A stretch of 64,000 nucleotides of DNA, from the NCBI GenBank assembly GCA_049975425.1, contig JBNGDI010000005.1, positions 24,277-88,276 of the forward strand. Direction: 5' to 3'. Below, one piece after another: positions 870 to 30,596 of this stretch (position 1 is its first letter; every line of letters begins with the position of its first letter). The position numbers were made by a program, and so were the translations under genes. Source of the DNA: Bacteroidales bacterium. GTDB lineage: Bacteria > Bacteroidota > Bacteroidia > Bacteroidales > VadinHA17. The notes beneath the pieces are model-generated. The model had not been told where the DNA came from, made no database searches, and saw only the letters and a list, made by a program, of their open reading frames with translations.

Positions 870-2113
870 AGGATGTTTCCTCCGATTTTTTGTATATCGT
901 CAAAAAAAGCGGGATATGATTTTGCCGTGCAACCGGGATCTGAAACCGAAACCCATGGAACATCCCCGGCCGCCATCACCGCCGCGGCCATGGCAATGCG
1001 GTGGTCACCATGGGGATTGATCTCACCTTCTTTGAGCGGGGCGGGTGTGATCTGCATCACATCCCCTTCCGTTTCCACCTTCACACCCAGGCCGGCAAAC
1101 TCTTCTTCCAGCACCCTGGCCCGGTTGCTTTCCTTGGCAAATAAGCGGGTTATTCCCCTGATGGTACTTTTTCCATGTGCATGGGCTGCCAGCGGCACCA
1201 GGGGTGGAAAAAGATCGGGGCAGTCGGTGGCATCGAAATCAAAAGGCCGGAGTTCCCCTTTCGATACCCGGATCTTCTCCTCGGATATTTCCAGTTTAGC
1301 CCCTGCTTTTTCGAGCACATCCAGAACGGCCCGGTCGGCCTGGCCCGATTGCGGGTCGAGCCCGGTCACCTCCACCGGTCCGCCCAGTGCACCAGCCACC
1401 AGGAAAAAAGCCGCCCCGCTCCAGTCGCCCTCCACTGTGTACCGGCAGGAGCGGTAACGCTGCCTCCCGGGAATATGGAAATACCGGTAACCGGTATGAT
1501 CGATCCGGATACCGAACGATTCCAGCACTTCCAGTGTCATATCCACATAGGGTTTGCTTTTCAGGCTGTCAACTTCCAGCTCCGAATCATTTTCTGCCAG
1601 AGGAAGCGCCATCAGCAATCCGCTTAAAAACTGGGAACTCTTTGAACCGTCAACACGGGATTTCCCACCCCTCAGCGGACCCTGCACCTTTACAGGAGCA
1701 TGGCCCCGGTGCGTTTTACACCTTACGCCAAGTTCCTGCAGAGAATTTTCTATCATATCCATGGGGCGGTATCTCAAAGTACCCCCGGCTTTCACCACCA
1801 TCTCCGCATCATGAAGTGCCACAATGGCTGAAAACAAACGGAAGGCCAGCCCCGATTCACCGCAGTGCACTTCATTGCCCAGCGGGGCAAACCCTCCTTT
1901 TACTTCCAGTTCCGCCTCCCGGTCTGCGATGGCGGCCCCCAGGCGTTCAATCACCTTCATGGCATGCAGGGCATCGTCCGAGCGGGACGGATTCCGGATC
2001 ACGGAAACACCATCGGCCAGCAGGGCTGCAGCCAGAGCCCGCTGGGTGAAGCTTTTCGAACCCGGTATATGAATTTTCCCGGCAGGATAGAATTGTTCAA
2101 TGACCTTCTTCAT
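866..2113 (-). CDS. aroA: 3-phosphoshikimate 1-carboxyvinyltransferase (EPSP synthase)
   Basis: ORF 866..2122. Motifs KIHIPGSKSFTQRALAAALLADG, LRYRPMDM and HGDHRIAMAAAV. Start set at ATG 2113 (MKKVIEQ), which makes an ATGA overlap with the aroB stop at 2110-2112. Confidence 0.9.
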   Translation of the reverse strand: MKKVIEQFYPAGKIHIPGSKSFTQRALAAALLADGVSVIRNPSRSDDALHAMKVIERLGAAIADREAELEVKGGFAPLGNEVHCGESGLAFRLFSAIVALHDAEMVVKAGGTLRYRPMDMIENSLQELGVRCKTHRGHAPVKVQGPLRGGKSRVDGSKSSQFLSGLLMALPLAENDSELEVDSLKSKPYVDMTLEVLESFGIRIDHTGYRYFHIPGRQRYRSCRYTVEGDWSGAAFFLVAGALGGPVEVTGLDPQSGQADRAVLDVLEKAGAKLEISEEKIRVSKGELRPFDFDATDCPDLFPPLVPLAAHAHGKSTIRGITRLFAKESNRARVLEEEFAGLGVKVETEGDVMQITPAPLKEGEINPHGDHRIAMAAAVMAAGDVPWVSVSDPGCTAKSYPAFFDDIQKIGGNIL

Positions 2114-3168
2114 ACAAAACATTCTTTTACTGCCCCTTTGACCAGTTCCCCGAGCTTTGACACAGGAATTTCAACAGGTTTCGCCCGGCCTGGTTTTTCA
2201 AGAACAATAAATTTCATATGCTTATCCTTCTTCTTCTTGTCGGCTGCCATCACCCGTAACAGCTCTCCGGCAGGCACTTTCATCCGGACAGGAAGGCCGT
2301 AGTCCTGAAGCAAATCTGCAATATCCTTCACATCTTCCCGGCGGAGCAGGCCCAGCATGCGGGATATCCCGGCCGCAAGCACCATCCCCAGGCTGACTGC
2401 CTTTCCGTGAGGGATCCGGAGCATTTTTTCGATGGCATGCCCTGCGGTGTGGCCGAAATTCAGCAGGCTGCGGATCCCCGTTTCTGCCTCATCACGGTTC
2501 ACAATATCCGATTTGATCCTGACCGATCCCTCAATGACCCGTGCGAGCAATTCCGGGTTGCCTGCCCTTATCCGGTTTCCTTCCCGTTGCAGCATGTCCA
2601 GGTAATCAAGGTCGGCAATCAGTCCGTGTTTTATCACCTCAGCCCAGCCGTTCTTCCATTCTTCCGATGGCAGGGTATTCAGAACCGACGGATCACACAG
2701 AACAAAACGGGGTTGTTTAATGGTACCAACCATATTCTTGTACCTCTTCAGGTTCACCCCGTTTTTCCCTCCGATGGCGGCATCCACCTGCGCCAGCAGG
2801 GTGGTGGGCGCATACCCGCAGGAAATACCGCGCATATAGGTAGCCGCCACAAACCCGGCCAGATCGGTTACCACTCCTCCCCCTATGCCCAGGAGAAACC
2901 AGCTCCGGTCTACCCCGGCCTGCATCATTTTCAGTGAAAGCTTCGATACAGTATTCAAATTTTTCGAACGTTCTCCGGTTTGCACAGTCAGAAGCAGACC
3001 TTCCGGGAAACGTGATCCGTAGAGGCCTGCCACACGGTTATCGCTTATGATCACTACGTTCCCTTCCGGTAAGTATTCCGGCAGCTTTTCAAAAGTAATT
3101 CCCGTGAGTATACGCGATACTCCGGTCTGCCCCCGGACAATAAATTCTTTCATGGCAGTGGGACCCAT
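2110..3168 (-). CDS. aroB: 3-dehydroquinate synthase
   Basis: Motifs GIGGGVVTDLAGFVAATYMRGI, DAAIGGKNGVNL and FGHTAGHAIE. An alternative ATG lies at 3153. Confidence 0.9.
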   Translation of the reverse strand: MGPTAMKEFIVRGQTGVSRILTGITFEKLPEYLPEGNVVIISDNRVAGLYGSRFPEGLLLTVQTGERSKNLNTVSKLSLKMMQAGVDRSWFLLGIGGGVVTDLAGFVAATYMRGISCGYAPTTLLAQVDAAIGGKNGVNLKRYKNMVGTIKQPRFVLCDPSVLNTLPSEEWKNGWAEVIKHGLIADLDYLDMLQREGNRIRAGNPELLARVIEGSVRIKSDIVNRDEAETGIRSLLNFGHTAGHAIEKMLRIPHGKAVSLGMVLAAGISRMLGLLRREDVKDIADLLQDYGLPVRMKVPAGELLRVMAADKKKKDKHMKFIVLEKPGRAKPVEIPVSKLGELVKGAVKECFV

Positions 3169-3188: not shown

Positions 3189-4277
3189 TTATGCTTTCAT
3201 TACCTTATTCTGCCGGTTAATGGATTCCTGATGAACAGCCATGAATATTTTTTCGACAACCTCCTTGCTCAGTCCAAGGCCGGCAGCTGCTTTGATCCGA
3301 TTATCCAGCAGCTCCTGCCAGCGTTGCGTTTGCAGGATGGTTACATTCTGTTTTTTCTTCAGCAGGCCGATCTTTTCTGAGATATCCATCCGCTGTGACA
3401 GTAGCCTTACCAGTTCGAGGTCGCATTCGTCAATCAGCCTGCGCAATTCTTCCAGCTCGGTCAGGAAATCCTCGTCATCGCTTTTTTCCTTTCTGATGAT
3501 CAGGCGGTTAAGTATCCGGCTTAATTCATCCGGGGTTACCTGCTGTTCTTTATCGCTCAGGGCCGAGGCCGGGTCGAAATGGGATTCGATAATCAGTCCG
3601 TCAAATCCCAGGTCCATAGCCTTCTGCGAAATTTCATAGATCAACCCGCAGGGGCCGCAGATATGGCTGGGGTCGGTAATAATCGGCAGTCCCGGCACCC
3701 GCCGGCGCAGTTCCACAGGTATCTGCCAGTGCGGATCATTGCGGTAGGTATTGGTTCCGAAGCGGCTGAACCCGCGGTGAATGGCAGCAAGTTTCCGGAT
3801 CCCGGCCCCGTTCAGCCTTTCCAGGGCCCCGATCCACAGATTCAGGTCGGGGTTCACCGGGTTTTTCACCATCACCGGCACTTCGGTTCCTTCCAGGGCA
3901 TCGGCAATTTCCTGAATGGCAAAAGGATTGGCGGTACTTCGGGCCCCGATCCACAGCATATCGATGCCGTATCGCAAAGCCTGGTATACATGCTTCACAT
4001 TGGCCACTTCGATGGTTACCAGCATATCCAGCTCCTTTTTCACCTTTTCAAGCCATTTGAGTCCCCTGGAACCCACCCCTTCGAAGGCATTCGGGCGGGT
4101 ACGGGGTTTCCAGATACCGGCCCGGAAAATTTGTACTCCGGCTTTTTTCAGTTCCCCGGCAGTTCTCATCACCTGCTCTTCCGACTCGGCGCTGCAGGGT
4201 CCCGCAATGATCATGGGTTTTTGCTGCATGTGTCCCGCCGGCAGCAAAGGTTCCAGTTCAAGATGGATCTGTTCCAT
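3189..4277 (-). CDS. bifunctional 3-deoxy-7-phosphoheptulonate (DAHP) synthase / chorismate mutase type II
   Basis: The N-terminal part matches type I-beta DAHP synthase (IIAGPCSAESEEQ, FRAGIWKPRTRP, IITDPSHI). The C-terminal ~90 aa look like a chorismate mutase helix bundle (LEELRRLIDECDLELVRLLSQRMDISEKIG...AVHQESI). Confidence 0.85.
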   Translation of the reverse strand: MEQIHLELEPLLPAGHMQQKPMIIAGPCSAESEEQVMRTAGELKKAGVQIFRAGIWKPRTRPNAFEGVGSRGLKWLEKVKKELDMLVTIEVANVKHVYQALRYGIDMLWIGARSTANPFAIQEIADALEGTEVPVMVKNPVNPDLNLWIGALERLNGAGIRKLAAIHRGFSRFGTNTYRNDPHWQIPVELRRRVPGLPIITDPSHICGPCGLIYEISQKAMDLGFDGLIIESHFDPASALSDKEQQVTPDELSRILNRLIIRKEKSDDEDFLTELEELRRLIDECDLELVRLLSQRMDISEKIGLLKKKQNVTILQTQRWQELLDNRIKAAAGLGLSKEVVEKIFMAVHQESINRQNKVMKA

Positions 4278-4293
4278 TTTATCTCAGTTAATA

Positions 4294-5463
4294 TTATAAA
4301 TGTACAACTCGTTTCGCAGCTTTTTCAAGTATTTCTGCAGGCGAACACAGGGAAATTCTGATATAGCCTTTTCCCTGTTGTCCGAACACGGAGCCCGGGG
4401 TAACAAAAACCAGGGCCTGCTCCAGCAGCCGGTCGGAAAACACCCTGTCATCGGGATCATGCCCCGGCAGCCTGCCCCACAGAAACATCCCCTGCTGGGA
4501 AGGTTCAAACTCAGCACACAGCGAATTCATGAGGGATTCTGCCATTCTGCGCCGTTCGTCATAAACCCTGTACAGTTGCTCGTACCAGGCATCACCCAGG
4601 CGGAGCGCAGTTGCTGCCGCCCGCTGCACGGGCAGGAACATGCCGCTCTGGTAATTGCTGCTGACCAGCAGAATGTCAGCGATGTGGCTTTCATGGGCCA
4701 CAATGAAACCGATCCTCCATCCCGCCATGTTGTGTGATTTGCTCAGGGAATTCAACTCCACCAGCCCCGGTTCCGGGCCGTTTTCATGAAACAGGCTGAG
4801 AGGCTCCCGGTTCAGGATAAAACTGTATGGATTATCGTTACAGATCAGGATGTGATTCTTTTTGCCGAAGTCCCTCAGCTTTCCGAAAAAATCCCTGTGA
4901 GCCGGAGCGCCTGTTGGCATGTGCGGGTAATTCACCCACATCAGTTTCACTTTTTCCAACCCCTCTTCCTCCAGTTCTTCCAGCCGGGGCAACCACCCGT
5001 TGTGCTCATTCAGCCGGTAGGTCCTGGGTATACCTCCTGCCATACGGGCAAGTACCGAATAAGCCGGATACCCGGGATCGGGAACCAGCACTTCATCGCC
5101 CGGATCTAGGTAAGCCAGTGAAATTTGCAGGATGGCTTCCTTTGAGCCCATGACGGGCAGAATATTCCTCTCCGGATCAAGGAAAATGCCAAACCGCTCT
5201 GCATACCAGCCGGCCACCGCTTCACGCAGTTCAGGAACTCCACGGTATGGCTGGTATCCGTGTGCCCCGGGCTCTGATGCGGTTTCCGGCAGGGTTTTCA
5301 ACACCCCGGGATGGGGGGGCAGATCGGGGCTGCCGATACCCAGGTTGATCACATCCAGCCCATCCTCCTTCATGCGCCTGATCTGCGCCAGCTTGCCGGA
5401 AAAATAATATTCTCCCACGCCGGATATTCTCAGCGCTTTTTCAAACATTGTGCTCATGGTCAT
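4294..5463 (-). CDS. class I/II PLP-dependent aminotransferase, probably aromatic/prephenate aminotransferase given its operon context
   Basis: Motifs NLGIGSPDLPP, NYPHMPTGA and the PLP-lysine motif SLSKSHNMAGWRIG. Start set to ATG 5463 (MTMSTMFEK), because 5473-5499 of the longer ORF is occupied by a terminator-like hairpin. It is the first gene of the aro operon. Confidence 0.8.
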   Translation of the reverse strand: MTMSTMFEKALRISGVGEYYFSGKLAQIRRMKEDGLDVINLGIGSPDLPPHPGVLKTLPETASEPGAHGYQPYRGVPELREAVAGWYAERFGIFLDPERNILPVMGSKEAILQISLAYLDPGDEVLVPDPGYPAYSVLARMAGGIPRTYRLNEHNGWLPRLEELEEEGLEKVKLMWVNYPHMPTGAPAHRDFFGKLRDFGKKNHILICNDNPYSFILNREPLSLFHENGPEPGLVELNSLSKSHNMAGWRIGFIVAHESHIADILLVSSNYQSGMFLPVQRAAATALRLGDAWYEQLYRVYDERRRMAESLMNSLCAEFEPSQQGMFLWGRLPGHDPDDRVFSDRLLEQALVFVTPGSVFGQQGKGYIRISLCSPAEILEKAAKRVVHL

Positions 5464-5590
5464 ACAGCGGATAAAAAAAATCCCGGGAAACACCCGGGAC
5501 CAGTTCAGCATGTATGAAAAGACAGCTCACCTGCCCCCGGTTTTCCGGCGGGAAATAGAAAAAATAATAATATGTTCCCTGATGTTTCAT
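5441..5590 (-). promoter_or_regulatory. candidate second aromatic-codon leader ORF (MKHQGTYYYFFYFPPENRG...)
   Basis: ATG at 5590-5588 sits immediately after the U-tract of terminator 1. Codons 7-13 are TAT TAT TAT TTT TTC TAT TTC. GC-rich segments CCCGCCGG (5552-5545) and CCGGGGG (5540-5534) precede hairpin 5499-5481. The ORF has no early stop and runs to 5441. Confidence 0.3.
5473..5499 (-). terminator. intrinsic terminator-like hairpin (attenuator 2), 10 nt upstream of the aminotransferase ATG
   Basis: Minus-strand RNA reads UCCCGGG-uguuu-CCCGGGA followed by U8 (plus-strand A-tract 5473-5480). It lies inside a 5' leader, not after a gene. Confidence 0.5.
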
Positions 5591-5623
5591 AAAAACAAAA
5601 AATCCCGTCGATCGGGACGGGAT
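5591..5623 (-). terminator. intrinsic terminator of attenuator 1
   Basis: Minus-strand RNA reads AUCCCGUC-ccgauc-GACGGGAU (8-bp stem, 5623-5602) followed by UUUUUUGUUUUU (5601-5591). It sits in the 5' leader of the aro operon. Confidence 0.6.
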
Positions 5624-5651
5624 GCTATTTTCTTTTCCTGCAATATGCAGT

Positions 5652-5714
5652 TTATCCCGTCCGTTTCAGTGACACGAAATAATAATAGATAAATATGTTC
5701 ATAAATTGCTTCAT
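5652..5714 (-). CDS. candidate 20-aa Tyr/Phe-rich leader peptide MKQFMNIFIYYYFVSLKRTG
   Basis: ATG 5714-5712 follows a purine-rich stretch (AAAAGGAAGAG). 7 of the 20 codons are Phe/Tyr, including the run TAT TAT TAT TTC. The stop UAA (5654-5652) overlaps segment ACGGACGGGAU (5664-5654). That segment is complementary to the 5' arm of the terminator. Confidence 0.5.
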   Translation of the reverse strand: MKQFMNIFIYYYFVSLKRTG

Positions 5715-5732
5715 CTCTTCCTTTTCAGGCAT

Positions 5733-5740
5733 CAAACCTA
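5733..5740 (-). promoter_or_regulatory. Bacteroidota-type -7 promoter box (TAGGTTTG, fits TAnnTTTG)
   Basis: The minus strand reads ...TTGGATTTCAAAAAAAGAATAAT-TAGGTTTG-ATGCCTG. A TTG about 20 nt upstream could serve as the -33 element. The box sits about 19 nt upstream of the leader ATG. Confidence 0.35.
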
Positions 5741-5850
5741 ATTATTCTTTTTTTGAAATCCAACACGGACTTCTGAAATTTTATTCTTTATTTCGTTTTG
5801 TTTGAAATAACGATCTTTGCTGAAAGCATTTCCGGGTTAAACAAAATATC

Positions 5851-6504
5851 ATGACAAGGAAAGAACGGTTCAAAATGGTCCTGGACTGGTTCAGGGAAAA
5901 CCGGCCGGTAGCTGAAACCGAACTGGAATATTCAGATCCTTTCAGCCTGCTTGTGGCGGTGATTCTCTCCGCCCAGTGCACCGACAAACGGGTGAACATG
6001 ATCACCCCTCCCCTGCTCGAAAGGTTTCCCACTCCGGAAGTTATGGCTGCAGCCGAACCCGAAGACATTTTTCCATATATCAAAAGCTGCACGTATCCCA
6101 ACAACAAGGCAAAGCATCTGTGCGGCATGGCCCGCAAACTGGTCAGCGATTTCAGCGGCCAGGTCCCTTCCGATACCGCCAGCCTTCAATCCCTGCCCGG
6201 CGTGGGACGAAAAACGGCCCATGTAATTGCCTCGGTAGTATTCAAACTGCCCAAACTGGCCGTCGATACCCATGTCTTCAGGGTGGCCAACCGCCTGGGG
6301 CTTGTAAAAGCCGCCACTCCCCTGGCAGCCGAAAAGCAGCTGGTACAGCATATTCCCGAATCGCAGATCCCACTGGCGCACCACTGGCTTATTCTGCACG
6401 GCCGGTATATCTGCCAGGCCAGGAAACCGCGCTGTGAAGAATGCGGACTTAACAGCTTTTGCCTGTATTATCAGAAGATGCAAAAGGAAAAAAACAGGTT
6501 ATGA
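5851..6504 (+). CDS. nth: endonuclease III
   Basis: HhH-GPD motifs (LVAVILSAQCTDKRVN, LPGVGRKTAHV) and a C-terminal 4Fe-4S cluster loop (CQARKPRCEECGLNSFC). Confidence 0.9.
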   Translation: MTRKERFKMVLDWFRENRPVAETELEYSDPFSLLVAVILSAQCTDKRVNMITPPLLERFPTPEVMAAAEPEDIFPYIKSCTYPNNKAKHLCGMARKLVSDFSGQVPSDTASLQSLPGVGRKTAHVIASVVFKLPKLAVDTHVFRVANRLGLVKAATPLAAEKQLVQHIPESQIPLAHHWLILHGRYICQARKPRCEECGLNSFCLYYQKMQKEKNRL

Positions 6505-8711
6505 ACACCATTTATCTTGATTACAACGCCACCACCCCCCTTGATCCGGAGGTGATCGATGCCATGAAACCATACCTCGACCGGTATTTCGGAAATCCTT
6601 CCAGCACGCACCGGTACGGCATCGAAACCCGGCAGGCAGTTGAAAAGGCCAGGGAACAGGTGGCAGCCCTTCTTCATGCTTTCCCCGGCGAAATCATTTT
6701 CACCAGCGGCGGAACGGAATCGAACAATATGGCCATAAAAGGGATAGCCCTGGCCCACGCATCCCGGGGAAAACACATCATCACCACATCGGTGGAGCAT
6801 CCGGCCACACTCGAGGTTTGCCGCTACCTGGAAAAACAGGGATTTGAAGTAACGTATGTTGATCCGGATGAAAAAGGGATGGTGCATGTCTCCGATCTGG
6901 AAAAAGCGGTCAGGGAGGATACCATCCTGCTTTCCATGATGCATGCCAACAACGAAGTGGGAACCGTGCAACCTGTGGAAGAAGCGGGCAAACTGGCAGC
7001 CCGGCACGGATTTTTTTTCCATACCGACGCCGCACAGTCGGCCGGAAAGATTCCCACAGATGTGAACCGGATGCATGTGCACCTGCTTTCCCTGGCGGGT
7101 CATAAACTGTACGGTCCGAAAGGTACGGGGGCGCTTTACATCAGAAAGGGGACCGTACTGGAAAAACTGATCCATGGGGCGGATCATGAACGGAACCTGA
7201 GGGCAGGGACGGAAAATGTGCTGGAGATTGTGGGACTCGGCAAAGCCTGCGAGATCGCCCGGCGCGACCTGGAAAAAAACATGCGCCACATGCGGCAAAT
7301 GAGAGACAGGCTGATGCAGGGAATCACTGAACATATCAAAGGGGTCCGGATCAACGGGGATCCGGCAGGCGGATTGCCCAACACCCTCAGTGTTTCCTTC
7401 CTGAACATGGAAGCCGAAACCATTCTCTCGGGTCTGCCGCAGCTGGCTGCTTCGGCAGGTGCTGCCTGCCATGCGGAACACACCACAGTATCACATGTAC
7501 TTCAGGCCATGCGGGTTCCCAACGAATATGCCCGGGGAACCATCCGTTTTTCCGTGGGCAAACCTACCACAGAGAAGGAAATTGACTCTGCCCTCAGCGC
7601 CCTCACCACCCTGGTCTCTTCACTTCAGACACGGGAAACCGAAACAACCACAGGCACAAAACAGATGATGAACAGCATTGCCCTTACCTCATTTACCAGC
7701 GGGCTGGGTTGTGCCTGCAAAATGCGCCCTCAGACTCTCGAAAGGCTGCTGTCCTCGTTCCCTCCATCGAACGATCCCCGGGTGCTGGCCGACCAGAGCA
7801 CCTCCGACGATGCCACCGTATTTATGATCAAGGATACGGCGCTAATACAAACCCTTGATTTTTTCACACCCATTGTTGACGACCCTTACAATTTCGGGGC
7901 CATTGCCGCCGCCAATGCACTGAGCGACATATACGCCATGGGAGGAATGCCCCTCTTTGCCCTGAATATCGTGGGTTTCCCTTCCTCCAGACTGCCACTG
8001 GAGGTTCTGGAAAAGATTCTGAAAGGAGCCTCAGACAAATGCAGGGAAGCGGAAATAGAAATCCTGGGCGGCCACACCATCGATGACCCCGAGCCCAAAT
8101 ACGGGCTGGTTGTCACCGGAACAGCCGATCCGACGCGTATTCTACGAAACAAAGGTTCCAGACCGGGCGATGCCGTCGTGCTCACCAAACCCATCGGCAC
8201 CGGCATCATTACCACCGGTATCAAAAGAAAGGCGGTCAGCCCCGAACTGGAAGAACAGGCCGTACACCTGATGTCGGAACTGAACCGGAAAGCCGCCGAA
8301 ATACTGTCGCGATATCCGGTCAGCGCCTGCACCGATGTCACCGGTTTCGGGCTGACCGGCCATCTATACGAAATGGTCCGGAACAGCGGAACAGAAGCCG
8401 AAATTTTCATCCGTTCGGTACCGCTGATCGAAGGAGTGGAATCGCTTGCCCGGGCCGGACTGATCCCGGGAGGCACACGGAACAACCTGGCTTACCTGGA
8501 GGGACACATTGCCTGGCCGCCCGGGATTTCCACAACAGAAAAACTGATTCTGTGTGATGCGCAAACATCGGGCGGTTTGCTGTTCACTCTGCCCGAAACG
8601 GAAGCAGAACAGGTAATAAGGGATTTGCATTCGGCCGGAATAAACCGGGCTGGTATGATAGGAAGGATTGCGCGGCAGGGAAAAGGCCTTATCCATGTAA
8701 CAGGACACTGA
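6501..8711 (+). CDS. selD: fusion protein: NifS-like cysteine desulfurase / selenocysteine lyase (N-terminal ~385 aa) joined to selenide, water dikinase SelD (C-terminal ~340 aa)
   Basis: The N-terminal part matches class V aminotransferase/NifS (LDYNATTPLDPEV, PLP-Lys SLAGHKLYGPKGTGALY, active-site loop SAGAACHAEH). A Thr-rich linker follows (QTRETETTTGTKQ). The C-terminal part matches SelD (SGLGCACKMRP, SDDATVF, DFFTPIVDDPYNFGAIAAANALSDIYAMGG). ATG 6501 overlaps the nth stop (ATGA). Confidence 0.85.
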   Translation: MNTIYLDYNATTPLDPEVIDAMKPYLDRYFGNPSSTHRYGIETRQAVEKAREQVAALLHAFPGEIIFTSGGTESNNMAIKGIALAHASRGKHIITTSVEHPATLEVCRYLEKQGFEVTYVDPDEKGMVHVSDLEKAVREDTILLSMMHANNEVGTVQPVEEAGKLAARHGFFFHTDAAQSAGKIPTDVNRMHVHLLSLAGHKLYGPKGTGALYIRKGTVLEKLIHGADHERNLRAGTENVLEIVGLGKACEIARRDLEKNMRHMRQMRDRLMQGITEHIKGVRINGDPAGGLPNTLSVSFLNMEAETILSGLPQLAASAGAACHAEHTTVSHVLQAMRVPNEYARGTIRFSVGKPTTEKEIDSALSALTTLVSSLQTRETETTTGTKQMMNSIALTSFTSGLGCACKMRPQTLERLLSSFPPSNDPRVLADQSTSDDATVFMIKDTALIQTLDFFTPIVDDPYNFGAIAAANALSDIYAMGGMPLFALNIVGFPSSRLPLEVLEKILKGASDKCREAEIEILGGHTIDDPEPKYGLVVTGTADPTRILRNKGSRPGDAVVLTKPIGTGIITTGIKRKAVSPELEEQAVHLMSELNRKAAEILSRYPVSACTDVTGFGLTGHLYEMVRNSGTEAEIFIRSVPLIEGVESLARAGLIPGGTRNNLAYLEGHIAWPPGISTTEKLILCDAQTSGGLLFTLPETEAEQVIRDLHSAGINRAGMIGRIARQGKGLIHVTGH

Positions 8712-8826: not shown

Positions 8827-11800
8827 ATGGACAATTTACCCGAAATAAATAAGAGAAAAAAGGGGGCCAACCATAAAAAAATGAATCTCTGGCGAGAAGA
8901 TCCTCACTTAAAGAACATCCCGCATTTTCATGATCTGCTATTCCTGCTCACAGCCGAAGGCCGGATCGTTACCGCCAACCCTCTGGCGGTGAGCCGTACG
9001 GGCAGGTCGCACACTGATCTCGCAGGCGAACTGTTCTACAGGATATTCCCTGATTATCAGCATAATGACATAAATAAATGGCTGGAACATCCTTCCGGAA
9101 AACCTGTCCCCGCCCTGTACCTGAAACTTGAAAGCGCAACCGGCGAAACCCTATATCTTCACTGTTCACAAACGGAATGGACCTGGCGGAAAAAACCTCA
9201 CCGGCTGATCAGGGCGGTTGAGGTAACAAAAGGCCTGTTCCCGGATACGGAAAAAAGCCTGGCCGAAGAAATGTTTTTTAAGGCTTTTCATTCCAATCCC
9301 GCCCTGATGGCCATCAGCAATTTCGAGAACAGCCAGTACATCGATGTGAACGAGAGTTTCCTGAATAATCTGGGATACAGCAGGGAGGAAATCGTCGGAC
9401 ACACCTCATCCGAACTGCAACTGTTTGTTGACCTGGTTCAGAGCGACAAATTTTTAAGGAAACTCAAAAAACTTAGCAAGGTAAGGGATTTCGAGGTCAC
9501 CATCAAAACCAAATCGGGAGAACCTCGCTACGGCCTGTTTTCTGCCGAAACCATCATGCTTCGCGGACAGCCCTGTTTGCTAACCATTATTAACGACATC
9601 ACCGAACGCAAGCTGGCAGAAGAAGAGCTGGAAATATCCGAACAGCGGTTCCGTGAACTGGCCGAGATGCTGCCCCTGATGCTATTCGAAGCCAGACTCG
9701 ACGGAACCATCACCTTTACCAACCAGTTCGCATTCAAAACCACACGGCATACGCCCGGGGAAGTGGAAAAGGGAGTGTCCTTCTTCGATCTGATCAACAA
9801 AAAGGAGCTGCCTGAGATCAGGAAAAAATTAAACCGGATTATCAGGCGCGAATCGGATGAAAACCCGCTGGAATGTACAGTCATCAGAAAAGACGGCACG
9901 GAATTCCCGGCACAGATCTTTATCAGTCTCATTTTCCATGAAAACAAGCCGGTCGGTTTACGTGGCGTTCTTATTGATATTACCGAAAGAAAAAAGACCC
10001 AGGAGGAACTGGAAACCGAAAAAGCCTATCTCGCCGAACTGATCGAGAGCGCCCCCGAGGCCATTGTGCTTTTGAACAATGAAAGCACCATTCTTCAGAT
10101 CAACTCGGAATTCGAAAAACTGTTCGGGTACACCCGGGAGGAAGCCATCGGGAAAAACCTTGACCAGCTGGTAGCCCCGGGCAAATACCTCAAACAGGCA
10201 GAAAAAGTAACCCGTACCATTGCCGGAGGGAAACAGATGGAACTTGAGTCGAAACGGGTAAGAAAGGACGGAAGCCTGGTAGATGTGTCCATCCTGGGAA
10301 CTCCCATAATCGTCAACAAAGCCCAGGTTGGCGTATTCGGTATTTACAGGGACATTACCGAAAGGAAAAAAGCCGAAACGGTACAGCGAATGGTCAACAC
10401 CATTTCCAAGGCTGTGATCACCACCAAAGACCTCGAAGAACTGTTCCTGGTGATCAAAAAGGAGCTCAGCAAGCTGATGGATACCACCAATTTTTTCATC
10501 GCCCTGTATGACAAGGAAAACAACAGCATCAGTCTGCCTTTCTTCCGCGATGAAAAAGACAAATTCAATAATATCCCCGCCGGGAAAACCATTACCTCCT
10601 ATGTGATCAGAACACGCAAATCCATGCTGCTCAAGACTGCTGATATGAAAAAGCTGGAGGAGGAGGGAGAAATTGAACTGGTGGGAACCAACTGCAAAGT
10701 ATGGATGGGTGTTCCCCTGCGATCGAAAAAGGAAGTTATCGGCATTATCAGCCTGCAAAACTATCAGAATGCCGATGCCTACAGCCGGGAAAATCTGGGC
10801 ATTCTCGAATTCATCGCCGATCAGATAGGAATTGCCATCGAATGGAAGAAAGCTGAATCTGAACTACACAACAGCCTGGAAAAATATCGTGCAGTGGCCG
10901 AAACCACCATTGCCGGCATCGGCATTACCGATACCGATGAAAACCTCAACTATGTGAATGCCGCTTTCGCGGAAATGCTGGGATACGACCCTGAGGAACT
11001 CACCGGCAAAAATCTTTCAGCCATCACTACCTCTGAAAAATACCAGTATTTCAGAGAACAAACATTAAAAAGAATGTCGGGACTGGAAAGCCAGTACGAA
11101 ATAACTCTCATAAGAAAAGACGGCACCCCGGTGGAAACCCTGGTCCATGCCTCCCCCCTGTTCGATGAATCCAACCGGTTCCGCGAAACCCTGGCTGTGA
11201 TCATCGATATTACCCGGTTGAAAGAAACCCAGGAAGAGCTGATCAGGGCCAAGGAAATTGCCGAAGAGGCCGCCCGTGCCAAGCAGCAGTTTCTTTCTAC
11301 CATGAGCCACGAAATACGGACGCCCATGAATGCGGTGATCGGCATGGCTCACCTTCTGCTGCAGGAGAACCCACGCCCTGACCAGATAGAAAACCTGCAC
11401 TCGCTCAAATTCTCTGCCGAAAACCTGCTGGTGCTGATCAACGACGTGCTCGATTTCAGCAAAATTGAAGCCGGCAAAATTGCATTCGAGGAAGCCGATT
11501 TCGACCTGCACAGTCTCCTGGAAGGCCTCAGGCAGTCGTTCGTTTTCAAGGCGGCCGATAAAAACATTCAGCTCGAATGCCACATTGAATCAGATGTTCC
11601 TAAAATTGTGATAGGTGATCCCTTGAGGCTGAATCAGGTGCTGACCAATCTGATGTCGAATGCCATGAAATTCACCGAACAGGGAAAGGTATCTCTTTCA
11701 GCCAGGGTGGCCCGTTCCGATGAAAAGACAACCTGTATCGAATTTTCCGTATCCGATACGGGAATCGGGATATCGCCTGATAATATCGGAAAAATATTCG

Positions 11801-12396
11801 ACAGCTTCGTACAGGCAACACCCGATACTACCCGAAAATATGGAGGAACCGGCCTGGGGCTTGCTATATGCAAACAACTCCTGCGCCTGAAAAATTCCAG
11901 CATCCAGGTAGAAAGCGAACCGGGAAAAGGTTCCAGGTTTTATTTCACCCTGTCCTTCAGGAACAGTAGCCTGAAGCATATCAGCGATACCGACGATATC
12001 GGAAAGATCAGCTATGAAAAACTCAAGGGAAAGAAGGTGCTCCTGGTGGAAGACAATGAGATCAACAGGCTGGTAGCCTACAAATTTCTCAGGAAATGGG
12101 GCATGGAGATCACCGAGGCAGGGAACGGAAAAGAAGCCGTGGAATACCTGGGAAAAAATACCTTTGACCTGATACTGATGGACCTGCAAATGCCGGTAAT
12201 GGACGGTTATGAAGCCACCCGGCATATTCGTTCATCCATGCCCAACGGCAAAACCATCCCTGTTGTGGCCCTGACGGCCTCTCTCATGAACGAGGTACAG
12301 GAAAAGATCATATCTTCAGGAATGAACGACCTCATACTCAAACCCTTCAATCCCGGCGAGCTTTATTCGAAAATCGTGAAAGTCCTCGAATCATGA
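8827..12396 (+). CDS. soluble hybrid sensor histidine kinase (multi-PAS, GAF, HisKA, HATPase, C-terminal receiver)
   Basis: PAS boundaries repeat (DITERKLAEEEL, DITERKKTQEEL, DITERKKAE, DITRLKETQEEL). H-box FLSTMSHEIRTPMNAV. G-box GGTGLGLAICK. Receiver VLLVEDNEINRLV...LMDLQMPVMDG. No obvious transmembrane segment. Confidence 0.85.
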   Translation: MDNLPEINKRKKGANHKKMNLWREDPHLKNIPHFHDLLFLLTAEGRIVTANPLAVSRTGRSHTDLAGELFYRIFPDYQHNDINKWLEHPSGKPVPALYLKLESATGETLYLHCSQTEWTWRKKPHRLIRAVEVTKGLFPDTEKSLAEEMFFKAFHSNPALMAISNFENSQYIDVNESFLNNLGYSREEIVGHTSSELQLFVDLVQSDKFLRKLKKLSKVRDFEVTIKTKSGEPRYGLFSAETIMLRGQPCLLTIINDITERKLAEEELEISEQRFRELAEMLPLMLFEARLDGTITFTNQFAFKTTRHTPGEVEKGVSFFDLINKKELPEIRKKLNRIIRRESDENPLECTVIRKDGTEFPAQIFISLIFHENKPVGLRGVLIDITERKKTQEELETEKAYLAELIESAPEAIVLLNNESTILQINSEFEKLFGYTREEAIGKNLDQLVAPGKYLKQAEKVTRTIAGGKQMELESKRVRKDGSLVDVSILGTPIIVNKAQVGVFGIYRDITERKKAETVQRMVNTISKAVITTKDLEELFLVIKKELSKLMDTTNFFIALYDKENNSISLPFFRDEKDKFNNIPAGKTITSYVIRTRKSMLLKTADMKKLEEEGEIELVGTNCKVWMGVPLRSKKEVIGIISLQNYQNADAYSRENLGILEFIADQIGIAIEWKKAESELHNSLEKYRAVAETTIAGIGITDTDENLNYVNAAFAEMLGYDPEELTGKNLSAITTSEKYQYFREQTLKRMSGLESQYEITLIRKDGTPVETLVHASPLFDESNRFRETLAVIIDITRLKETQEELIRAKEIAEEAARAKQQFLSTMSHEIRTPMNAVIGMAHLLLQENPRPDQIENLHSLKFSAENLLVLINDVLDFSKIEAGKIAFEEADFDLHSLLEGLRQSFVFKAADKNIQLECHIESDVPKIVIGDPLRLNQVLTNLMSNAMKFTEQGKVSLSARVARSDEKTTCIEFSVSDTGIGISPDNIGKIFDSFVQATPDTTRKYGGTGLGLAICKQLLRLKNSSIQVESEPGKGSRFYFTLSFRNSSLKHISDTDDIGKISYEKLKGKKVLLVEDNEINRLVAYKFLRKWGMEITEAGNGKEAVEYLGKNTFDLILMDLQMPVMDGYEATRHIRSSMPNGKTIPVVALTASLMNEVQEKIISSGMNDLILKPFNPGELYSKIVKVLES

Positions 12397-29060: not shown

Positions 29061-30596
29061 TCAATACCCCGGATTTTGCCGGATATTTTCGTTGGTATCG
29101 ATTTCCTGCTGTGGAATGGAGAAGTATTCACGTCCGGGAACATATGCTTCGAACTCAGGATCGTTCACCTTGAGTTCGGCCAGTTTGTCCGGATCATACA
29201 GCCATCCCCAGCGGACGATATCATCGAACCGGTGACCCTCCAGGGCAAATTCCAGGAACCGCTCATGGGCAAGCTGCTCCATCAGCTGGTCTTTCGTATA
29301 GCCTGCAAATTCCATTTCGCGGTCGGGGAGATCCACCCTGTCTCTTACCATCTGTATGTACTGAGCGGCAACACCGGGCTGGTCGAGCTGTATCATGCAC
29401 TCGGCATACATCAGCAGCACATCGGCATAGCGCATCAACCTTTCGTTGATGCCTGAGCGCCAGTCGAACTCATTTTCTCTCCCGCTCTGGTCGTTCTGGT
29501 ATTTTTTCGGGAAGATTTTTGTATGATCGGGGTATGCATCCCGGAAAGCCACACCGTAAAGAGTACATCCGGGGTAATCATAGATAATGGTTTCCCTCAG
29601 CCTGGGATCCACCTCCCCGCCCACGGTTTGTTCAATCTGGAACTGTTCAAACAGGTAGCGGGTTGGCAGCACGTCGGAGAAACCAAAATTCTCGGGGCCG
29701 TAAGTAATGGCCCGGGCCGTAGTTTTGCTCCAGTTGGCTGCCGGCTCATCCACCCATCCCAGAACGGTGCCGCCCACATCGCGGTCAAACTGGACCTCGA
29801 AGATCGATTCCTGGTTGTTTTCAAATTCTTCAGTGAAATTATCGCCGTAATTTTCCATCAGGCCGTATATACCGAGGTCAAAAACATCCTCGAACCGGTC
29901 GGCTGCATCTCCATACCTATGATTGAACAGATACGCCTTTCCCAGGTATGCCAGGGCGGCTCCCCGGGTGGCACGACCGATATCCGCTGCATTTTCCCAT
30001 TGCACCGGAAGCAGGTCGGCCGCATCGGAGAAATCGGCATAGATCTGGTCCCACACCAGTTCGGGATCTACCTGCGGTTGATAAAATTCATCCGAACTTT
30101 GATAGGATTCCAGGATCAGGGGGATGTTTCTGAAAAACTTCACCAGGTGCATGTAATACAGGCCTCTCAGGAATTTGGCCTGTCCCAGTAACCGGTCGTG
30201 CATTTCCTGGTCGGTCCACTCGATATCGTCTATCCGGGTAATCACATGGTTTGCCCTGTGAACCCCTCCGAAGAACACCACCCACAACCATTCCTGCATA
30301 ATTGAGTTATTGGGCAGGCTGAACCGGCCGGTATTGTGTATCACATCCCAGGGGCTGTCACCTTTGACGTCATCGCCGCGAAGGTCGAGAGCCAGCTGGC
30401 AGAATCGCATATAAGAGCCGTCATAATACAGGGTCTGGTAAATGGCATTGGTAGCATACCAGAAATCCTCTTCTGTTTTGAAGAAATTATCCACGTCGGG
30501 TCTGTTCGGGTTGGTCAGCTCCAGGAAATCCTCGCTGCAGGAAGGAGCCAGTACCATCAGAACAGCCGCCATGACAATGTATTTTATCGTTTTCAT
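29061..30596 (-). CDS. susD: SusD/RagB-family nutrient-binding outer-membrane lipoprotein
   Basis: Lipoprotein signal MKTIKYIVMAAVLMVLAPSCSED. It lies immediately downstream of susC. TPR-like helical composition and a typical about 510 aa length. Start at ATG 30596. Confidence 0.85.
   Translation of the reverse strand: MKTIKYIVMAAVLMVLAPSCSEDFLELTNPNRPDVDNFFKTEEDFWYATNAIYQTLYYDGSYMRFCQLALDLRGDDVKGDSPWDVIHNTGRFSLPNNSIMQEWLWVVFFGGVHRANHVITRIDDIEWTDQEMHDRLLGQAKFLRGLYYMHLVKFFRNIPLILESYQSSDEFYQPQVDPELVWDQIYADFSDAADLLPVQWENAADIGRATRGAALAYLGKAYLFNHRYGDAADRFEDVFDLGIYGLMENYGDNFTEEFENNQESIFEVQFDRDVGGTVLGWVDEPAANWSKTTARAITYGPENFGFSDVLPTRYLFEQFQIEQTVGGEVDPRLRETIIYDYPGCTLYGVAFRDAYPDHTKIFPKKYQNDQSGRENEFDWRSGINERLMRYADVLLMYAECMIQLDQPGVAAQYIQMVRDRVDLPDREMEFAGYTKDQLMEQLAHERFLEFALEGHRFDDIVRWGWLYDPDKLAELKVNDPEFEAYVPGREYFSIPQQEIDTNENIRQNPGY

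Follow-up and report, generated by a model that had tools for sequence, protein, structure and literature searches.

The DNA examined here, referred to below as the window, is a stretch of 64,000 nucleotides (nt) from a Bacteroidales bacterium of the VadinHA17 lineage (GenBank assembly GCA_049975425.1, contig JBNGDI010000005.1, positions 24,277 to 88,276), and the subject of this analysis is the leader of an aromatic amino-acid operon on its minus strand, which carries two candidate attenuators. The first structural gene of this operon codes for a class I/II aminotransferase (4294-5463; Pfam PF00155 and NCBIfam), with candidate start codons at 5463, 5457 and 5448, and is followed by the genes for DAHP synthase/chorismate mutase (DAHPS/CM, 3189-4277), aroB (2110-3168), aroA (866-2122) and aroC (869 to the window end, where it is incomplete). 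In the usual pheA-aminotransferase-tyrA-DAHPS operons of Bacteroidota, the ortholog of this aminotransferase is the second gene; in the window and in the relatives of its clade, the aminotransferase itself opens the operon, in place of pheA. Neither pheA nor tyrA occurs in the operon or elsewhere in the 64-kb window. Upstream, 387 bp separate the ATG at 5463 from nth, a plus-strand gene for endonuclease III (5851-6504), and this gap forms the leader. In the direction of the minus strand, it contains a -7 promoter box, a first open reading frame (ORF1), a small hairpin, a terminator (T1), ORF2, a GC-rich hairpin, a central hairpin and a second terminator (T2). Since nth, the nearest upstream gene, is divergent from the operon, T1 and T2 terminate no upstream gene.

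The two leader units

Unit 1 lies behind a Bacteroidota-type -7 box, TAGGTTTG (5733-5740), located 18 nt upstream of the ATG of ORF1. This ORF of 20 codons (5652-5714, minus strand like all leader features; MKQFMNIFIYYYFVSLKRTG followed by a UAA stop) is conserved in relatives and harbours at codons 8-13 the run F-I-Y-Y-Y-F (5676-5693), of which the YYYF codons occupy 5687-5676. Segment A (ACGGACGGGAU, 5654-5664) overlaps the stop codon (5654-5652), and its paired part (GGACGGGAU, 5654-5662), which forms the 5' strand of antiterminator 1 and holds the first base of the UAA, is separated by 13 nt from the last Phe codon of the run. Segment B (AUCCCGUCC, 5615-5623) takes part in two alternative structures, either pairing with A over 9 bp in antiterminator 1 or forming the 5' arm of T1, whose 3' arm and tail (5591-5609) consist of segment C (GACGGGAU, 5602-5609) and a U6GU5 tract down to 5591. 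T1 as a whole (AUCCCGUC-CCGAUC-GACGGGAU plus U6GU5, 5623-5591) has an 8-bp stem and a 6-nt loop, and folds with -12.4 kcal/mol (z = -3.1 against dinucleotide shuffles), compared with -19.5 kcal/mol for the fold spanning A to B. When A, B and C are folded together, the minimum free energy (MFE) structure picks A:B in 6/6 sequences of the clade described below. The geometry of unit 1 is that of an attenuator in which a ribosome halted in the run would leave A exposed and one halted at the stop codon would cover it.

An Rfam match to BTnc005, a Bacteroides small RNA family, spans exactly unit 1 (5598-5725, minus strand). With 15.4 bits against a threshold of 174.8, it falls far short and is probably driven by composition and by the terminator.

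Unit 2 is built around ORF2 (5441-5590, 49 codons, MKHQGTYYYFFYFPPENRGQ...HNV before the stop), which opens MKHQGTYYYFFYFPPENRG... and carries at codons 7-13 seven consecutive Tyr/Phe codons, Y-Y-Y-F-F-Y-F (5552-5572). Segment 1 (CCCGCCGG, 5552-5545) shares its first base with the end of the last Phe codon and folds back on the following stretch into the 1:2 hairpin (CCCGCCGG-AAAA-CCGGGGG, 5534-5552), an anti-antiterminator that appears in the MFE structure of 5552-5479; the hairpin region encodes a conserved F/Y-P-P-E/G motif. Alternatively, segment 2 (CCGGGGGCAG, 5540-5531) pairs with segment 3 (CUGGUCCCGG, 5503-5494) to give antiterminator 2 (5494-5540), in which 9 of 10 bp form around the nested central hairpin (-23.1 kcal/mol, z = -3.0). 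Segment 3 doubles as the 5' arm of T2 (5473-5501), a GGUCCCGGG-UGUUU-CCCGGGAUU hairpin (5501-5479) of nine pairs followed by U8 (5480-5473), with -15.5 kcal/mol and z = -2.8, which leaves 9 nt up to the aminotransferase ATG at 5463. The full fold of 5552-5479, combining the 1:2 hairpin, the central hairpin and T2, reaches -34.2 kcal/mol. The layout of unit 2 is the classical four-segment one, with 1:2, 2:3 and 3:4 pairings.

The 3' end of ORF2 is peculiar. The frame contains no stop before T2 but runs through it, and its UGA (5443-5441) lies 2 nt past the third in-frame aminotransferase ATG, at 5448 (AUGUUUGA). ORF2 ends at the same point in five close relatives, while in locus L088 it is 70 codons long and shares 37 nt with the beginning of the gene. 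The frame is open in 6/6 sequences, which is weak evidence for ORF2 because L088 has a second open frame in this region and the five close sequences cannot count as independent. The geometry of unit 2 fits that of an attenuator as far as the stalled ribosome is concerned; the terminating half, with no stop ahead of T2, is a prediction.

A preliminary description of this DNA, made from the letters alone, had placed two aromatic-codon ORFs and two terminator hairpins in the leader. Its minus-strand coordinates proved correct throughout, including those of A, B, C, the U6GU5 tract and the YYYF codons of unit 1, as did the 9-bp A:B pairing, and the comparison of A:B with B:C energies that it had put forward as a check gave the -19.5 and -12.4 kcal/mol quoted above. 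It was also right that ORF2 lacks an early stop, but the mechanism of unit 2, which it had called unclear, corresponds to a clear four-segment layout. Its caveat that the aromatic runs lie in AT-rich DNA was justified, with a GC content of 40% in the leader against 51% in the window; a chance origin of the runs is not borne out by the shuffles reported below (6.6 regions expected, 113 observed).

Within the 64-kb window, taken on both strands, only five ATG-initiated ORFs of at most 70 codons have at least five F, Y or W among seven consecutive codons, and two of these are ORF1 and ORF2; among the five, ORF2 alone attains seven out of seven. Another one, at 29449-29526, was attributed to chance and sits inside a 531-aa ORF on the other strand. 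With regard to structure, T1, T2, A:B and 2:3 all fold 2.8-3.3 standard deviations better than dinucleotide shuffles.

Conservation in close relatives and across the phylum

Close relatives of the aminotransferase are few, with 85-89% identity, a single one at 62%, and then a drop to 58% or less. The clade set comprises six distinct leader sequences covering 62-100% aminotransferase identity; a metagenome scan added three loci, whose leaders are identical to that of L002. One of the close relatives is a metagenome-assembled genome labelled Bacteroidetes bacterium SpSt-1193. The contigs of close relatives share the arrangement of nth next to aminotransferase-DAHPS/CM-aroB-aroA-aroC, and the gene order of the window operon recurs in the relatives L001-L008 and in L088.

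The -7 box, the two ORFs with their aromatic runs, segments A, B and C, and segments 1-4 recur in all six clade sequences, the TAGGTTTG box being invariant. ORF1, MKQFMNIFIYYYFVSLKRTG in the window, reads MMKFLNIFTYYYFVPQKRTGS, MMQPLNIFTYYHYFVPQKRTG, ...NIFTCYYF... or MDYRSTYFYFYSVIQTG in relatives, and the run of ORF2, YYYFFYF in the window, becomes YHTFFYY, YDTFFYY, YYNFFYY, YHYFFYY or SYYFYY. Aromatic positions therein swap Tyr for Phe and vice versa or drop out singly, as expected from selection on codon identity and not on the peptide. The loop between A and B and the central hairpin diverge across the clade, with the stem segments fixed. In the terminator state, 94% of positions are paired over the clade (100% for T1 and T2 each, the pairing of T1 including two G.U changes, and 79% of cells for the 1:2 hairpin). 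In the antiterminator state, 97% are paired (A:B 100%, 2:3 94%), with almost no variation, and the 2:3 fold recurs in all six sequences. A single compensatory pair was found, a G-C to A-U change in T2 of L001. The preliminary description had proposed, as a check, to look in relatives for the small ORFs, their aromatic codons, the alternative stems and compensatory changes therein; the first three are indeed conserved, and compensatory change amounts to this one T2 pair.

The analysis was then extended to 160 further Bacteroidota loci, fetched via the aminotransferase and with their genes marked by tblastn; in 142 of them, the sequence before the first operon gene extends over 350 nt or more, and mini-ORFs were sought in the 600 nt that precede this gene. 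The genes are usually arranged as pheA (prephenate dehydratase)-aminotransferase-tyrA-DAHPS/CM, and in some operons aroB and aroA come next. At least one sense-strand aromatic mini-ORF is present in 121 of the 142 loci, compared with 5 matches on the reverse complement of the 142 regions. After reduction to distinct regions, the count is 113/134, against 3.6 in global dinucleotide shuffles and 6.6 in shuffles within 60-nt blocks. A TAnnTTTG motif precedes the leader ATG by at most 70 nt in 96 of 111 distinct phe leaders (one in control windows), and a terminator-like hairpin abuts the first gene after most survey leaders. A stretch following the run is complementary to the 5' arm of the terminator beyond shuffles in 44% of 117 distinct units at p<=0.05, and in 36% at p<=0.01, where 1% would be expected. 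In 99 of 108 units, the best complementary strand has its start 6-14 nt past the end of the aromatic run, a distance that would be about that of the front edge of a stalled ribosome. In nearly all Bacteroidota units outside the window clade, the leader stop is located 20-45 nt upstream of the terminator.

From these results it follows that the units of the window belong to a very widespread design, and the aromatic leader predicted from these sequences is nearly universal upstream of Bacteroidota phe operons. Unit 1 matches this phe-leader design fully, with its mixed Phe/Tyr run, its spacing, its stop upstream of the terminator and an ORF length within the typical range of about 15-30 codons. 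Unit 2 departs from it only in ORF length (49 codons) and in the position of its stop after the terminator; given where leader stops sit elsewhere in the phylum, the stop-less ORF2 represents a clade-specific variant.

Two further features of the surveyed leaders deserve mention. In 42 of the 96 phe leaders with a box, the latter lies 0-9 nt before the leader ATG, a second group having 15-24 nt, as in the window; with the 0-9 nt spacing, the mRNA that gives rise to the leader peptide may be leaderless or nearly so. In five loci from Spirosomataceae, Arcicella, Aquirufa and related organisms (L022, L024, L037, L061 and L152), there is no pheA before the aminotransferase, and the leader ORF is almost purely Tyr-rich (e.g., MNLTINTYRTYYYYYGTPA, MKNHKVTSSVYYYYYGQ and MNVNTNTYYATYYYAGYYPGI); this points to a variant of the attenuator that is specific for Tyr.

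Doubled leaders are not restricted to the window clade. Two aromatic mini-ORFs were detected in 18 of 103 distinct leader sets, with about 10 tandem cases outside the clade, in which the units are about 150 nt apart. These comprise Chitinophaga-like loci (L042, L048/L057 and L167), the Bacteroidales loci L045 and L051, L046 from Saprospiraceae, L070 from Lewinella, and L058, L076 and L091. A terminator was detected after each unit in most of them, with none after the second unit of L051. A division of labour between a Tyr and a Phe unit was considered and rejected: both units mix Tyr and Phe codons in the window and in every tandem lineage, so that neither amino acid has a unit to itself. The second leaders of L076 and L091 show Pro-Pro past the run (FFPPEKEL before the stop and FFPLPPGSG..., respectively), as in the window clade; unlike in the latter, however, their ORF stops before or at the terminator.

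Other features of the neighbourhood were noticed. Beyond nth, a 750-aa ORF (6459-8711, plus strand) fuses a NifS/IscS-type cysteine desulfurase (residues 18-390) to a complete SelD (residues 403-742), i.e., selenophosphate synthetase, and L001 and L002 carry the same fusion (736-737 aa). As listed, this ORF overlaps nth by 46 nt, and its start is probably further downstream; the overlap is 4 nt in L002. It is followed by a 1189-aa ORF (8827-12396, plus strand), whose counterpart in relatives contains many PAS and GAF sensor domains. A tRNA-Sec-like Rfam match (5264-5330, plus strand; 18.2 bits vs. a gathering threshold of 47, E = 2) falls inside the aminotransferase gene, about 1.1 kb from the selD fusion gene. 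It is most likely due to chance, since ARAGORN finds no tRNA in the whole window.

Proposed mechanism and alternative explanations

On the strength of these features, we consider it likely that the leader consists of two complete ribosome-mediated transcription attenuators in series, both sensing charged tRNA-Tyr and tRNA-Phe. The preliminary description had already read the leader in terms of ribosome-mediated attenuation, and this reading gains support from the codon run, the terminator and the mutually exclusive antiterminator found in each unit, as well as from their conservation in the clade and the phylum. Most likely, both switches stop transcription early unless Tyr or Phe is scarce, the reading of unit 1 being more secure than that of unit 2.

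We infer that both ORFs are translated and propose the following sequence of events. Transcription would start just downstream of the TAGGTTTG box. Under scarcity, a ribosome would stall in the F-I-Y-Y-Y-F codons of ORF1 and, because segment A begins 13 nt further on, would leave it free to pair with B, so that RNA polymerase would read on. Under plenty, the ribosome would get to the UAA inside A and cover this segment, and B:C together with the U-tract would end the transcript near 5595-5591. As the ATG of ORF2 starts with the first base past the T1 U-tract, unit 2 would be met by read-through transcripts only; a separate promoter for unit 2 was considered and discarded, the abutting ATG leaving no room for it. 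On these transcripts, a ribosome stalled in the YYYFFYF codons would cover segment 1, segments 2 and 3 would pair, T2 (3:4) would be blocked and the operon would be transcribed. With no stall, either segment 1 would hold segment 2 or the moving ribosome would cover segment 2, and T2 would end the transcript near 5475. Overall read-through would be the product of that of both units, and this multiplication would sharpen the response to aromatic supply and reduce the basal level in comparison with a single unit.

The off state of unit 2 can do without a stop codon in the strict sense, as segment 2 can be held by segment 1 or covered by a trailing ribosome. We estimate that a ribosome covering segment 2 must trail RNA polymerase by more than about 45 nt. 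A ribosome close behind the polymerase would block T2, and termination under plenty therefore needs a lagging or braked ribosome. The conserved Pro-Pro-Glu/Gly codons past the run might delay the ribosome while it occupies segments 1 and 2, and the overlap of ORF2 with the gene start might couple their translation.

Several points weigh against this proposal. With no ORF2 stop before T2, a closely trailing ribosome would itself prevent the terminator from forming, which makes the off state of unit 2 uncertain, and transcription-translation coupling is not known to have been characterised in Bacteroidota. Unit 1 has no anti-antiterminator, and a leader left untranslated would read through T1 by default. 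Covariation support for the stems is limited to the one compensatory pair in six sequences, with shuffle controls that are not significant; since covariation is weak and the antiterminator stems hardly vary, support for the structures comes from conservation and energetics. In the survey, the duplex test is significant in fewer than half of the 117 units.

The unusual end of ORF2 lends itself to a different explanation, in which only one unit, most likely unit 1, senses amino acids, and unit 2 is an upstream ORF serving translational coupling or a decaying, stop-less duplicate. In the coupling version, translation of ORF2 through T2 would unfold the hairpin and deliver ribosomes to the first gene. 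The passage of ORF2 through T2, with a UGA 2 nt after the in-frame ATG at 5448, speaks for such a reading; no stop interrupts the frame before the gene start in any of the six relatives, over 70 codons in L088, and the clade is an outlier with respect to the upstream stops, at 20-45 nt, of nearly all other Bacteroidota units. However, the seven-codon run, segments 1-4, and T2 with its U8 are kept down to 62% identity, and a pure coupling ORF would have no need of them. The open frame is itself weak evidence for the reasons given above (the second open frame of L088 and the non-independence of the five close relatives), and the 37-nt overlap in L088 is no tight stop-start junction. We thus regard this explanation as improbable, although it ranks well ahead of the two discussed next.

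Alternative structures do not by themselves reveal what selects between them, and translation of the ORFs is itself a prediction. One may therefore imagine that a trans-acting factor, such as an RNA-binding protein, an uncharged tRNA as in T-boxes or a small ligand, picks the structure, the aromatic ORFs being incidental. Yet incidental ORFs would not keep an ATG, an F/Y run and an in-frame stop in 113 of 134 regions, compared with 4-7 in shuffles, nor would one expect, in 99 of 108 units, an antiterminator strand that starts 6-14 nt past the aromatic run. At gathering level, Rfam 15 scans of the window and of 15 other Bacteroidota phe leaders returned no T-box, riboswitch or other relevant family, no match in the window attaining its gathering score, and the leader offers no evidence for a T-box, a riboswitch or protein-binding repeats. 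The best leader match, to Trp_leader (RF00513), reaches 15.6 bits against a gathering threshold of 41 (E = 7), and a permissive scan of 4800-6400 gave sub-threshold matches only (anti-hemB, PrrF, NsiR1, SorX/Y, BTnc005 and Trp_leader), which were treated as chance; the anti-hemB and PrrF alignments that were inspected matched mainly the T2 hairpin and its U-tract. Control by a trans-acting factor hence appears very unlikely. The last alternative, that the leader holds no regulatory element at all, we judge slightly less credible still. The runs would then merely reflect the richness in T of intergenic DNA, and the hairpins would be ordinary terminators or mark the ends of a small RNA gene; TTT and TAT codons do come easily at 40% GC, against 51% for the window, and the unit 1 transcript, once terminated, could have a role as a small RNA too. 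The survey already contradicts this view, with 113 regions observed against 6.6 in shuffles of local composition. Just three other such mini-ORFs exist in the 128 kb of strand in the window, the divergent upstream gene leaves nothing for T1 and T2 to terminate, and the two units have been kept together with the operon in the six relatives as well as phylum-wide.

Starting from two attenuators in series, a more far-reaching proposal joins two claims, namely, that the doubled attenuator is a recurrent, selected architecture of Bacteroidota, and that unit 2 of the window clade is a hybrid in which a Pro-Pro brake replaces the stop. According to the first, the doubling seen in about one in seven distinct phe leaders of the survey (Chitinophagaceae, Saprospiraceae/Lewinella and Bacteroidales) would provide multiplicative, switch-like control of aromatic amino-acid synthesis. 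According to the second, ORF2 would have lost its stop, and a ribosome held at Pro-Pro-Glu/Gly would cover segment 2, so that T2 would form under plenty; on read-through transcripts, ORF2 would carry ribosomes through T2 to the aminotransferase start, joining attenuation to translational coupling. Taken jointly, these two claims are possible but doubtful.

Relation to known systems and significance

The closest known counterpart is found in the same phylum. Guerin et al. (2021, ISME Commun, PMC9723704, SI Appendix D9 and Table S7) described an F/Y leader-peptide attenuator upstream of pheA-aspC3 in Flavobacterium psychrophilum. They mapped its transcription start site behind a TAnnTTTG-type promoter and reported a separate 171-nt 5' transcript segment, putative terminator and antiterminator hairpins, read-through in some conditions and top expression in minimal medium; the pheA 5' element was conserved in other Flavobacteriaceae, with no Rfam match (PMC9723704). 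Like the window leader, this element combines a short ORF with many Phe/Tyr(/Trp) codons (MNTNNTFYSNNSFYFYWNIGRDCYMVI), hairpins predicted to act as terminator and antiterminator, and a SigA-type TAnnTTTG promoter close upstream, and it controls an operon with an orthologous aminotransferase. It differs in consisting of one unit whose leader ORF stops before the terminator, and its operon starts with pheA, whereas that of the window is devoid of pheA and tyrA and has aroB, aroA and aroC attached.

Outside the phylum, the E. coli pheL-pheA leader (reviewed in PMC3082878), as well as trpL and hisL, have in common with the logic proposed for the window leader a run of end-product codons, ribosome stalling, mutually exclusive 1:2, 2:3 and 3:4 pairings and an intrinsic terminator, and unit 2 has exactly the four-segment layout of the pheL type. 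There is, however, no sequence or structure homology between pheL and the window leader, and pheL is a single unit with Phe codons only and a leader stop before segment 2, whereas the window leader mixes Tyr and Phe. Promoters of Bacteroidota also differ from those of E. coli. In contrast to E. coli, translation starts in Bacteroidota are not known to be driven by Shine-Dalgarno sequences.

Tandem attenuators, in the form of the ORFs mgtM and mgtP, are known from the Salmonella mgtCBR leader (Lee and Groisman 2012, PMC3641672). Here too, one long leader contains two short ORFs, the translation of each deciding between stem-loops that control transcription into the coding region. The two ORFs of mgtCBR sense different signals, ATP and charged tRNA-Pro. 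Those of the window leader share a Tyr/Phe codon signal, have their own canonical terminators and precede a biosynthetic operon, unlike mgtCBR, which is devoted to virulence and Mg2+ transport. For the stop-less ORF2, the nearest parallel is E. coli pyrBI, where the pyrL ORF of about 44 codons likewise crosses the terminator of the attenuator and comes to its end beside the first gene. In that system, RNA polymerase pausing depends on UTP, and a ribosome following closely blocks the terminator. Unlike the window leader, pyrBI has neither an amino-acid codon run nor an antiterminator stem.

In Bacteroidota, the Bacteroid-trp leader (Rfam RF01692; Weinberg et al. 2010, PMC2864571) is of the leader-peptide type and is located upstream of the trp operon. 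It is a different RNA, with Trp codons and a different operon, and has no match to the window leader. Its existence shows that leader-peptide control is established in this phylum. Attenuators have reportedly also been predicted in Bacteroidetes/Chlorobi by Vitreschak and colleagues in 2004. A transcriptome paper on B. thetaiotaomicron mentions, without going further, small ORFs 'reminiscent of leader peptides' in long 5' untranslated regions. A description of tandem aromatic attenuators in Bacteroidota was not found in the literature searched, most subscription journals lying outside this search. The preliminary description, which had not recognised such a system as described, went too far with respect to its kind, already reported as a single unit in one flavobacterium (the F. 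psychrophilum pheA-aspC3 element, PMC9723704), while the tandem form and the stop-less ORF2 do appear to be undescribed in the literature searched. What is new here is the presence of two complete units in series, the stop-less ORF2, and an operon lacking pheA and tyrA and containing shikimate-pathway genes; this is a variant of a known mechanism, not a new mechanism.

Leader-peptide attenuation is textbook knowledge in Proteobacteria and has barely been tested in Bacteroidota. With regard to genome annotation, the present reading accounts for two strong terminators right before an essential biosynthetic operon. The tandem form offers a natural setting in which to see whether the effects of serial attenuators multiply, and the stop-less ORF2 one in which to see how closely ribosomes trail RNA polymerase in these bacteria. 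At the scale of the phylum, one simple design, as read from these leaders, would control aromatic synthesis in most of its members, combining a -7 box, a Phe/Tyr mini-ORF, an antiterminator strand and a gene-adjacent terminator.

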